A stretch of DNA of 63,326 nucleotides from a candidate division WOR-3 bacterium. GTDB taxonomy: Bacteria > Hydrothermota > Tepidihabitantia > Tepidihabitantales > Tepidihabitantaceae. Numbering within the stretch: the stretch's first letter is position 1; each line of letters opens with the position of its first letter. The notes beneath the pieces are model-generated. The model saw only the letters and a program-made list of their open reading frames with translations, was not told the DNA's origin and ran no database searches. Below are positions 15,207-18,356 of this stretch, piece by piece. The position numbers were made by a program, and so were the translations under genes. Where the stretch lies: assembly GCA_026397595.1 (NCBI GenBank), contig JAPLUO010000214.1, positions 1-63,326 on the forward strand, given 5' to 3'.

Positions 15207-18200
15207 CTACAACTTGGTCCGGCGCAGGCGGAGGGAGTTGGTGACCACGTTCACTGAGGAAAGGCCCATCGCCACTTCGGCCATGATGGGATGGAGCAGC
15301 CCGAGCATGGCCAGCGGTATCGCGACCACGTTGTAGGCGAACGCCCAGAAGAGGTTTTGCCTTATCTTCACAAAGGTGGCGCGGGAGAGCTTGATTGCGG
15401 AAACAACACCTGTCAGGCTGCCGCGCACGAGTGTGACGTCCGACGATTCAATGGCCACTTCGGTGCCGGTGCCGATGGCGATGCCGACGTTGGCGGCCTT
15501 CAAGGCCGGCGCGTCGTTGATGCCGTCGCCGACCATGGCCACGCTGCCGAACTCTTTCTGCAGGTCCATCACGACCTGCTGCTTCTGCGCGGGCAGGACT
15601 TCCGCGACCACGCGCTCGATTCCGACTTCGCGGGCAATCGACTCCGCAGTCTCATGGTTGTCGCCGGTCAGCATCACTGGCACGATGCCGAGCGCCTTGA
15701 GGCCGGCAATCGCCTCGGCTGAGTCCGGCTTGACCGTGTCGGCCACGCCGATGACGCCGAGCAGTTTTCCTCCGGCCGCGACGTAGAGCGCACTCCGCGC
15801 CCGCTTCTGGAGTTCTGTCGCCGCATCGGTGAGAGCACGGCAGTCAACCCCGCATTCCTTGAGCAGTTCCTCTTTGCCGACCACCACCTCGACGCCACTC
15901 ACCAGGCCTTTCACACCCAGGCCCGGAACAGCTTGAACTTCCGTTGCCTGCGAGAGAAGTTCTTTGGAGTGCGGCAGCGGAGCTGCCGCCTTTCCGGGCT
16001 CGTCCGTCCGGTTCGGAAAAGCGGGAGCTGCGCTCCCGCACTCCAAGGCCCCGGAAGCACCGCAATCCGGTACGGTCCCCACGATTTCGGTCATGTCCCG
16101 CGCCGCGGCGATTACCGCTCCTGCCAGAGGATGTTCCGACCCCTGTTCCACTGCAGCAGCCATCCTCAGTACATCGGCTCGCTGCACCCCGGCGGCCGGA
16201 ATCACGTCGGTGACCGCGGGCCGGCCCTGCGTGATGGTGCCGGTCTTGTCGAGCACGACCGCGCGGACGTCTTTCAGGGTCTGAATCGCCTCTCCCGAGC
16301 GGAAGAGAATCCCGCGCTCCGCGCCCATGCCGGAGCCGACCATCAAGGCGGTCGGAGTCGCAAGCCCCAAGGCGCACGGGCAGGCAATCACCAACACCGC
16401 GACTCCGGCAAAGAACGCGAGCGATACCACCGGTAATTGCGGGTTGACCCATGGCAGGAACTTCGCGGCCCATACGAGCATCGGCTTGAGGCTCGGCGTC
16501 AGGAAGAACCACGCGGCAAAGGTCACCGCTGCGACCAGCAGGATTACAGGTACGAAACGGGCCGTTACCTTGTCGGCAAACGCCTGAATGGGAATCTTGG
16601 TGCCCTGTGCCTGCTCGACCAGCTTGATAACCTGGGAGAGGAACGTGTCTTTGCCTACACGGGTAGCCTCGACCTTGATGAGGCCGTTGCCGTTCACTGT
16701 CGCGCCGATGACCTCGTCGCCGGTCTTCTTCTCGATCGGCAACGACTCGCCGGTCGCCATTGATTCGTCCACGCTGGTGCTGCCTTCGACAATCCGGCCG
16801 TCGGTGGGAATCTTCTCTCCGGGCCGGACAACCATCACGTTGCCGGGCGCGAGTTGCGCAACCGGCACTTCCTTCTCGACGCCCTCAGCCGTTTGAATCC
16901 GCGCGGTGCGCGCACCGAGGGCGACGAGCTTCTTGATCGCCTGTGAGGCCCGGCCCTTTGCGCGCGCCTCGATGTACCGGCCGGTCAGGAACACGGCCAT
17001 CACCATGCCACCGGCGTCGGCAAAGCTCTTTATCGGCAGCCCGGCCAGCACGGCGACCCCGGAAGCCAGCGCCGCGCTCACGCCGAGCACAATCAGCACG
17101 TCCATCGAAGCGGACCCGGCGCGCACCGAACCCCATGCCCCGCGTATCGTGGTCCATCCCGGGCCGAACAGCACCGCGGTGCAGAAGGCGACGTCAATCC
17201 AGACCATCCCCGGGATGTGGACCGCGTGGAGGCCGTGCAGCACCATCAGCAGCATCGGCACCAGCCCGAGAATCCAGGCCCAGACCAGCCGGCTGGAGGC
17301 ACGGCGAAGTTCGGCCTCGGCATGGTCTTCGCTGCCGGCCGTTTCGTGCCTGACTTCGTAACCGACGTCGGTAACCGCCTTCTCAAGCGCGGCGACCGGC
17401 GACACCTTGGGGTCGAACTCGACGATCGCCTTCTCAATGGCGAAGTTCACTGTCGCTGTCTTTACGCCCGGCAGCCGGTTGAGCGCCTTCTCCACGGTGG
17501 CCACGCAGCTCGCACAGCTCATGCCGCCGACCGCAAGTGTCACGGTCTGGGTCTTCCCCAGTTCCGCCTTGTCGAGCAGCACGGGCTCGGGCAAACCGCT
17601 GTCCGCGATTTGTCCTTCGTCCTTCGTCCTTTGTCTTTCTCCCTGCAAGAACCTCTCCGGTTCGGACTGGAACCGCTTCAGGCAGTTCGGGTTGCAGAAG
17701 TAGAAGGTAGTGCCCTTGTAGTCCCACTTCGCCGCCTCCTGCCCTTCCTGAACCACCATCTTGCACACCGGGTCAATGTGAGATTGCCGATTGACGGTTG
17801 CGGATTGTAGAATGTCCGGACCCTTTGTGTCTTCGAGTCTTGGTGGTAAGGTGCCGTCAGTTCTGACTTCTGACTTCCCCCGTACTTTCGTGTCCTTGTG
17901 TCTTTGTTGTGGGATTCCAGCAGTTCTGACCTCTGGACTCTGCATTCTGACTTCTGCCTTCGGTTGCGCTGCCGGCTGAGGTTTGGGCTTGAGTCCAAGG
18001 TACAGGTCCGGGTCAGCCTTGAACTGCTCAAGGCAGCTTTGGCTGCAGAAGTAGTACGTCTTTCCATTGTACTCCCACTTGCCCGCCTCACGGCCCTCGA
18101 TAACGTGCATTCGGCACACCGGGTCAACGTGCGACTTCGCCAGTCCCTCGGCCACCGGCACGACTTCAGGCGTCTTCTGCTCGACCGGCGGTTTCGTATC

Positions 18201-18356
18201 GAAGTGCGACTCCGGGTTCTGCTGGAACTTGCGGGCGCAGACCTTGGAACAGAAGTAGTACGTTACGCCGTCGTACTCGCGCCGGGCAGCCTCCTGCCCC
18301 TCCACAACTTCCATCTTGCAGACCGGGTCAATGTGTCGAATCGGAACTGTCTTCAT
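15207..18356 (-). CDS. copA: copper-translocating P1B-type ATPase with three N-terminal YHS/TRASH domains and one HMA domain
   Basis: Three copies of DPVC(K/R)M.V...YYFC.. modules. [11 protein letters not shown] motif, CPC (ACPCALG), [13 protein letters not shown]. Confidence 0.95.

Follow-up and report, generated by a model that had tools for sequence, protein, structure and literature searches.

Insertion of palindromes in frame into protein-coding genes is an already documented kind of event (PMC3733652, PMC10969869). In Rickettsia, the Rickettsia palindromic elements (RPEs) interrupt unrelated housekeeping genes in frame, at points that the protein fold can accommodate, and are translated into a peptide without evident function (Ogata et al. 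2000, 2002, summarised in PMC10969869 and PMC3733652). Intragenic repetitive extragenic palindromes (REPs) and REP dimers are translated in frame as 20–30 amino acids (aa) for dimers, or 43–82 aa for clusters, in bacteria such as Opitutus terrae, Thauera and Rickettsia conorii (Di Nocera, De Gregorio and Rocco 2013, PMC3733652). Here, we describe a palindrome inside a copA-like gene on contig JAPLUO010000214.1 of a candidate division WOR-3 bacterium, analysed over its 63,326 nucleotides (nt), hereafter the window. This palindrome is very probably a REPIN-like (REP doublet forming a hairpin), non-autonomous element, whose family is served by a transposase resembling the REP-associated tyrosine transposases (RAYTs), encoded on contig C375 of the same genome, and which sits in a tolerant loop of CopA, where it replaced half of a hairpin of a second family. 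A sequence-only reading of the window had likened the palindrome to RPEs, and this analogy is supported by the absence of the insert from orthologues, the stability of the hairpin and the existence of a genome-wide family. The accompanying statement that in-frame palindromes are known from Rickettsia is true but too narrow, as catalogues of intragenic REPs cover many phyla (PMC3733652).

The genome of the window, G000, is a metagenome-assembled genome (MAG) of 4.7 Mb in 494 contigs, with 94% completeness and 6.6% contamination. Throughout, C denotes contigs of G000, G001–G010 denote relatives of the same genus, P denotes protein homologues and L denotes loci.

The host open reading frame (ORF) runs on the minus strand, encodes 1049 aa and contains the palindrome in frame. 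Its Pfam domains are E1-E2_ATPase, Hydrolase, a single HMA and three copies of YHS, with HMA and YHS at the N-terminus, and the CPC, DKTGT, SEHP and GDGxND motifs are all intact in the translation; the protein is thus a predicted P1B-type Cu(+)-ATPase of the CopA-like type. A repeat finder delimits two hairpin arms of 33 nt each, which are 88% complementary and correspond to the two REP units of Table 1. The perfect pairing of TGGAGTGCGG (15965-15974) with CCGCACTCCA (16036-16045), noticed in the sequence-only reading, agrees with the sequence, whereas the loop, previously put at ~30 nt, measures 17 nt because the arms extend to 33 nt. Folding of the coding strand as RNA yields −61.4 kcal/mol, compared with −40.2 ± 3.4 kcal/mol for 200 dinucleotide-preserving shuffles (z = −6.27), none of which is as stable; the comparison with shuffled controls proposed in the sequence-only reading therefore came out in favour of a genuine hairpin. 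An Rfam scan of positions 15700-16400 returned a sole match to a plant miRNA family hairpin, at 27 bits against a gathering score of 168, which is meaningless. As a separate observation on the host gene, the linkers between the three YHS domains (~17600-18200) are of low complexity, with recurring KSEVR.QK.EVRTAG-like motifs; they vary in length and content among the close orthologues P0002-P0008 and may be repeat-derived.

Searching G000 with the 101-nt palindrome region finds dozens of matches. An nhmmer profile built from 21 full copies places this family, family 1, at 46 places in the genome, about 27-30 of them full doublets of 67–107 nt and the others single units or partial copies, and two variants of the unit have 51 and 56 near-exact matches. 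The unit consensus is TTTGGAGTGCGGCAGC-N3/4-GCTGCCGCCTTTCC, itself a small hairpin, with GCGGCAGC-N3/4-GCTGCCGC forming the hairpin in each unit. In a full element, two inverted units surround a variable spacer, often with an outer mini-hairpin GAGC-GAA-GCTC. Because each arm is itself a small hairpin, the element can be classed as a REP doublet, and on this anatomy family 1 would be a family of REPINs. The earlier suggestion to look for related palindromes elsewhere in the genome was thus well founded: eight of the 46 places fall within ORFs, while 38 lie outside credible ORFs. All six frames of the unit, as read from the sequence, are free of stop codons. All ten sister species of the genus contain family 1, as do 5 of the 15 genera of the family, and it was not found in the remaining genomes searched.

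About ten family-1 doublets start right after the stop codon of genes encoding a type IX secretion system (T9SS) type A sorting domain, the proteins ending in ...KVVVQR (C323:3681-3783, C14:6223-6325, C34:36805-36907, and sites on C403, C10, C24, C41, C88, C168 and C348). The end of these genes, GCAGCGGTAGCTGC, is a small hairpin resembling the REP stem, and may be either a preferred target or a part of the element.

The palindrome is only a portion of the DNA that was inserted. The 81 bp originally delimited are a real palindrome, but as the extent of the insert they are too small, since homology to other copies spans 15952-16099. By comparison with these copies, the insert reads as a 148-nt mosaic, in which the left portion of an element from another palindromic family (family 2) is joined to a REP doublet of family 1 (Table 1). 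The net gain is 126 nt, i.e., 42 codons, over insert-free orthologues, confirming that the segment is in frame as had been claimed, and 102 nt over the orthologue in G009. The fold of the 149 nt from 15952 to 16100 reaches −79.2 kcal/mol. Compared with family-2 copies, the right arm of family 2 is absent from the window insert.

Table 1. Coordinates of the copA insert and its parts in the window, and of related copies on other contigs of G000 and in relatives
Feature	Coordinates or loci	Strand	Basis or remarks
Host gene, copA-like (predicted)	15207..18356	-	Pfam and motifs
Whole mosaic insert, 148 nt, encoding about 50 residues	15952..16099	-	homology to other copies
Family-2 left arm, GGGACATGACCGAAATCG	16082..16099	-	common to the short hairpin at the same site in G009, P0002, P0003, P0012
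Internal module of the family-2 long form, TGGGGACCGTACCGGATTGCGGTGCTTCCGGGGCC	16047..16081	-	also in all five long-form copies
REP unit 1 (family 1), own hairpin GCGGGAGC-GCA-GCTCCCGC	16014..16046	-	read as 10 residues
Variable spacer between REP units, loop of the large hairpin	15997..16013	-	repeat finder, copy alignment
REP unit 2, inverted orientation, own hairpin GCGGCAGC-TCC-GCTGCCGC	15964..15996	-	read as 11 residues
Terminal mini-hairpin; plus strand GAGAGAAGTTC, family consensus GAGCGAAGCTC	15952..15962	-	common to C201, C288, C437 and two G006 copies
Family-1 doublets upstream of the C375 gene	9967-10034, 10057-10115		
Family-1 copies downstream of the C375 gene	9261-9291, 9307-9377, 9391-9431		
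Family-2 copies, examples	C196:1943-1987, C379:1629-1672, C186:6331-6422, C490:6796-6886, C60:6125-6166		
TrmFO orthologue loci	L038 G000, L039 G009, L040 G005, L041 G001, L042 G002, L043 G007, L128 G006, L129-L131		L129-L131 are empty sites

The same mosaic recurs at C201 and C437, in both cases upstream of gene starts, with identical junctions: these two copies share the family-2 arm, the module, the REP doublet and both internal junctions with the window copy. A partial mosaic lies at C288, in frame in an EamA-like ORF, and the three copies are 86–91% identical to that in copA. The similarity of C201 and C437 to copA beyond the hairpin was considered as a sign of paralogous ATPases and rejected, being due to the shared family-2 arm. 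In G006, two copies with aligned flanks have the REP doublet and the end hairpin but not the family-2 module; hence the mosaic is not seen outside G000 among the few relative copies with aligned flanks. With regard to miniature inverted-repeat transposable elements, the family-2 part has arms like terminal inverted repeats, the right one missing in the window, and comparison with empty sites reveals no direct repeat flanking either the copA insert or an insert in trmFO (see below).

The segment had also been claimed to be an insertion relative to the usual CopA N-domain, and this holds: orthologues lack it, and it maps to the loop after the SEHP helix. For all genus and family relatives with a copA gene, including orthologues that are 92–93% identical, the match skips query residues ~135-184. 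The insert is in none of the 14 best homologues that were read and aligned from a search of 5.8 billion proteins, eight of which were re-aligned around the site. Three states of the site can be distinguished. In the empty state, the sequence reads ...AAAEADKLVLPQATDVQAVPGQG, as in G001, G003, G004, G006 and G008 (DNA alignment) and in P0004, P0005, P0007 and P0008. In the intermediate state, nine extra residues are encoded by a 43-nt hairpin, as in G009, P0002, P0003 and P0012, of which P0003 is 94% identical to the window protein. The third state is the 50-residue version of the window.

The DNA of the intermediate state, GGGACATGACCGAAATCG-GCTCGG-CGATTTCGGGTCGTGTCCC, is palindromic and belongs to family 2 of G000. 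This family, GGGACATGACCGAAAT...ATTTCGGATCGTGTCCC, comprises 29 short copies (~40-44 nt, with loops of 4–9 nt) and five long copies (~92 nt), and window positions 16047-16099 match the left arm and the internal module of the long form. In-frame copies of family 2 also occur in ORFs read by eye as UvrC-like (C60) and ApbE-like (C490). Three further observations concern this family and CopA. The 13-mer GGGGACTGTCCCC, a core shared by the family-2 long-form module and a palindrome in trmFO of G001 and G002, occurs 131 times in G000 with both strands counted. In P0037, a CopA homologue from another WOR-3 assembly, the family-2 peptide ARDMTETSSAVSDRVPSR is found at a second CopA site, which lies upstream of SEHP and is bordered by VTDVIP and EDEVLRLAAS. 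At this second site, P0034, likewise a CopA homologue from another WOR-3 assembly, carries an unrelated extra segment.

The exact window protein was found in one assembly only, and repeats misassemble easily, in particular in a MAG of 494 contigs with measurable contamination, such that the insert might be a repeat collapsed or spliced into the contig during assembly. However, the insert is far from the ends of its 63-kb contig, in the middle, it preserves the reading frame, and colinear copA sequence adjoins it on either side; moreover, analogous in-frame copies occupy orthologous sites in independently assembled genomes of other species. We therefore regard an assembly artefact as extremely improbable.

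From the three states, we infer that the copA site held a hairpin element before the REP doublet came. The loop after the SEHP helix would first have carried a 43-nt family-2 hairpin, as it does in the nearest relatives. In the G000 lineage, the right half of this hairpin would then have been replaced by a family-2 long-form module fused to a REP doublet, the same mosaic that is also present at three other places in G000. Thereafter, the copy may persist without any need for a benefit to the host, because its units are free of stops in six frames, its net length change is a multiple of three and its 42 extra residues would form a disordered surface loop which spares the ATPase fold and motifs.

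A candidate for the enzyme that moves family 1 is a 173-aa gene at C375:9429-9949. This gene is bracketed by family-1 copies, two doublets preceding it and a doublet framed by single units following it (Table 1), and being flanked by its own REPs it has the layout of a REPtron. A 78%-identical homologue in G001 (G001:C63) has a like setting, preceded by a family-1 doublet and followed by three single units, and in G006 (G006:C7) family-1 units adjoin a weak Y1_Tnp match. The C375 protein matches the NCBIfam model NF047646 (REP-associated tyrosine transposase) with E = 7.5e-22 and 77.8 bits, and the motifs NHYHFV and YVHNNPV were spotted in it by eye. The gene is a candidate for a RAYT-like HUH/tyrosine transposase of family 1, and by analogy with the systems of E. 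coli and Pseudomonas (PMC3116915, PMC3733652) this enzyme would move the family-1 repeats. The gene was missed by the Pfam Y1_Tnp search of G000 and was located via the weaker matches of the relatives; the five genes of G000 that this search did find were rejected as the family-1 transposase, as none is flanked by family 1. Also rejected was a 663-aa ORF on the plus strand of C375, which is antisense of the transposase locus.

One of these five Y1_Tnp genes is a second RAYT gene of G000, of 155 aa, at C489:2640-3330 (L024). It is flanked by classical GTAG-headed REPs, GTAGGAGGGACATCCCTGTCCC, with ~11 near-exact matches genome-wide when both strands are counted. A family-1 doublet with an internal insertion lies 150 bp downstream of this locus.

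Several points weigh against the view that the palindrome is a REPIN served by this transposase. To our knowledge, transposition of REPINs by RAYTs has been directly demonstrated in no system. The NF047646 match is 2 bits under the curated cut-off of 80, the match to Pfam Y1_Tnp is weak (16.3 bits, cut-off 23), and the comparison with the E. coli TnpA-REP structure 4ER8 is non-significant (E = 0.84). The family-1 consensus TTTGGAGTGCGGCAGC...GCTGCCGCCTTTCC lacks the GTAG or CGTC head of classical REPs. Furthermore, the junctions of the copA insert rest on a single MAG contig, and the base-by-base course by which the mosaic formed cannot be recovered.

The transposase might also have been irrelevant to the event in copA. 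The nearest relatives carry the family-2 left arm at exactly this site, and C201 and C437 share the same arm, module and doublet as well as both internal junctions, so that the resident arm could have seeded homologous recombination or gene conversion with another mosaic copy. Moreover, the right arm and ~20 nt of ancestral sequence are gone, which is untidy for a clean insertion. However, the homology amounts to only 18 nt on one side and none can be seen on the other, the mosaic copies occur on separate contigs and in contexts without relation to each other, meaning that the mosaic spread somehow, and REP elements are known insertion targets of other elements (PMC3733652). Recombination is thus a tentative alternative for this single step, which we consider possible but not the likely course.

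For the protein, alignment with the P/N-domain of Archaeoglobus fulgidus CopB (3SKY) extends on both sides of the insert, six residues there (68-73) corresponding to 48 here, with the insertion point immediately C-terminal to the SEHP helix. For residues 690-969, an AlphaFold2 model computed from a 36-sequence alignment has a mean predicted local distance difference test score (pLDDT) of 88.6, with the domain above 95. In model residues 72-115, the pLDDT falls to 46–61 without secondary structure, and the helix continues through RDMTEIVG. The low pLDDT and the coil conformation indicate that the insert is a disordered surface loop in this model. The loop that follows the SEHP helix is of variable length and tolerant of insertions, and the disordered-loop model together with the intact motifs suggests that the pump would still be active.

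The insert encodes two cysteines in a copper pump (C-x9-C), and the frame that reads LECGS...GKAAA.LPHSK is used in most coding copies, both of which would suit a lineage-specific functional loop of CopA, e.g., a regulatory or metal-binding one, whose likeness to a repeat is superficial. On the other hand, both cysteines come from the repeat consensus and recur in copies within unrelated genes as well as in intergenic ones, even orthologues that are 92–94% identical lack the segment, and it is predicted to be disordered, making such a function very improbable.

With the copA copy included, eight of the 46 family-1 places fall within long ORFs whose composition looks coding both before and after the repeat; the host genes other than copA were called from ORF length, codon-position GC content and Pfam rather than by a gene finder. 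Pfam confirms five hosts, namely CopA, TrmFO, MnmG, a Type ISP restriction enzyme and a TPR-OmpA protein (the latter with a single unit), and finds no domain in the EamA-like ORF, a 1211-aa ORF on C283 and an ORF on C220. The copy in MnmG stretches GIDA_C_1st from 94 profile positions to 126 residues, and that in the Type ISP enzyme stretches Type_ISP_C from 340 to 432 residues. Long ORFs over the copies at C375 (plus strand), C229, C34, L161 and L171 were rejected as antisense or non-coding by composition, with low-complexity translations. The MnmG copy occurs in G000 and G004 and is absent in G009, G003, G002 and G006, whereas the C283 copy is common to G000, G005 and G006 and the C220 copy to G000 and G001. 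Six of eight first units are read in the LECGS frame and six of nine second units in the GKAAA..LPHSK frame, a frame preference which is suggestive only, given the small sample and the choice of frame after seeing the data. Two of these hosts contain other inserts as well. The Type ISP gene has a second in-frame palindrome at C422:8196-8333 (138 nt, −84 kcal/mol), CCCTCTCCC...GGGAGAGGG, read as SPQPSPKGRG...PLKGEGEGEGE, and the MnmG gene has a related SPLPSPRGGEGEKG insert near its N-terminus (C39:4522-4626).

In trmFO, two sites were followed across the genus. Site 1, between YIT and FQPMNAN, has no insert in G003, G008 and G010, and elsewhere it shows at least four types of insert: G000, G009 and G006 have a family-1 doublet, G001 and G002 a GGGACAGTCCCC-type palindrome, G007 the short form of family 2 and G005 a further palindrome. 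At site 2, before RLRGRDKR, five genomes carry an insert and five do not. This re-use could reflect survivorship, few sites tolerating inserts, or it could reflect targeting of existing hairpins. A broader proposal is that in this genus a few permissive loops such as that of the CopA N-domain and the two TrmFO sites are landing pads, colonised repeatedly and independently by unrelated hairpin families that target existing hairpins or each other, and that the translated copies are active members of the REPIN population, with DNA-level maintenance of their stems and drift in loops, spacers and synonymous sites. We regard this proposal as speculative and rather doubtful; if it were true, intragenic copies would be a normal habitat of these elements, not dead ends.

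The stems of translated copies are strongly conserved. Between G000 and G009, 63 of 65 arm positions of the TrmFO REP stems are identical, and between G000 and G005 the left arm in the C283 protein is identical at all 33 positions, whereas the third codon positions of the flanking genes in these comparisons are 57–63% identical. The hairpin loops and spacers of orthologous coding copies differ freely, with spacer length differences in multiples of three. This pattern is compatible with a REPIN population whose members derive from master copies by replication or homogenisation, but it could also reflect selection at the RNA level, in which case the hairpin would be retained for a role in RNA or DNA, e.g., to stabilise the mRNA or to pause translation between parts of the N-domain. 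Against such a role, intergenic copies have the same conserved consensus, the coding copy on C220 is visibly decayed, the orthologues work without any insert, and conserved stems are expected of REPINs that are replicated or homogenised from master copies (PMC3116915, PMC8049555). A nucleic acid-level function of the copA hairpin is therefore unlikely.

The kind of event described here being documented already, the field is left unchanged, and what is new is the WOR-3 lineage. Translated REP/REPIN insertions are extended to this candidate division, and a REP family without a GTAG head is tied to a divergent RAYT-like gene. The less common details seem to be the mosaic of two families, the protein sites at which different families turn over and the conservation of stems in translated copies. 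At one protein site, orthologues that are more than 91% identical provide a natural series from an empty site via a 43-nt hairpin to a 148-nt two-family mosaic, which serves the study of how such elements arrive and turn over. For annotation, these elements account for unusually long loops in otherwise conserved WOR-3 proteins, and for protein evolution, they add a further case of selfish DNA as a source of disordered loop material. We found no paper on such elements in WOR-3.

While the family-1 elements resemble several known systems, we note differences from each. First, as with the REPs catalogued by Di Nocera and colleagues, most family-1 copies are intergenic, often directly adjoining stop codons, only a minority is contained in ORFs, and the candidate RAYT gene is flanked by repeats; family 1 differs in having no GTAG or CGTC head, in its WOR-3 lineage, in the mosaic of two families and in the re-use of sites by different families in sister species. 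Second, like the RPEs, family 1 lies in frame in several unrelated genes, the five hosts confirmed by Pfam among them, with the copA copy in a predicted surface loop. However, only ~17% of family-1 copies are in ORFs, compared with nearly half for some RPE families, a candidate transposase is present here, and the host is a free-living, GC-rich WOR-3 bacterium, not a member of the Rickettsiales; the likeness to RPEs is thus one of the way of working, not of family membership. Third, the REPIN-RAYT systems (Bertels and Rainey 2011, PMC3116915; 4ER8) share with family 1 the inverted doublets with a short spacer, the long hairpin, tens of copies, a transposase gene, here a candidate, bracketed by its own REPs, inheritance within a genus, and conserved stems with variable spacers, whereas the putative transposase here is divergent, the family occupies ~46 places rather than the hundreds of Pseudomonas, and several copies are translated. 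Finally, the enterobacterial bacterial interspersed mosaic elements (BIMEs) combine REP units with other short motifs and recur at several loci, as the copA mosaic does; however, BIMEs are extragenic, whereas one copy of the mosaic described here lies inside copA and another inside an EamA-like ORF.

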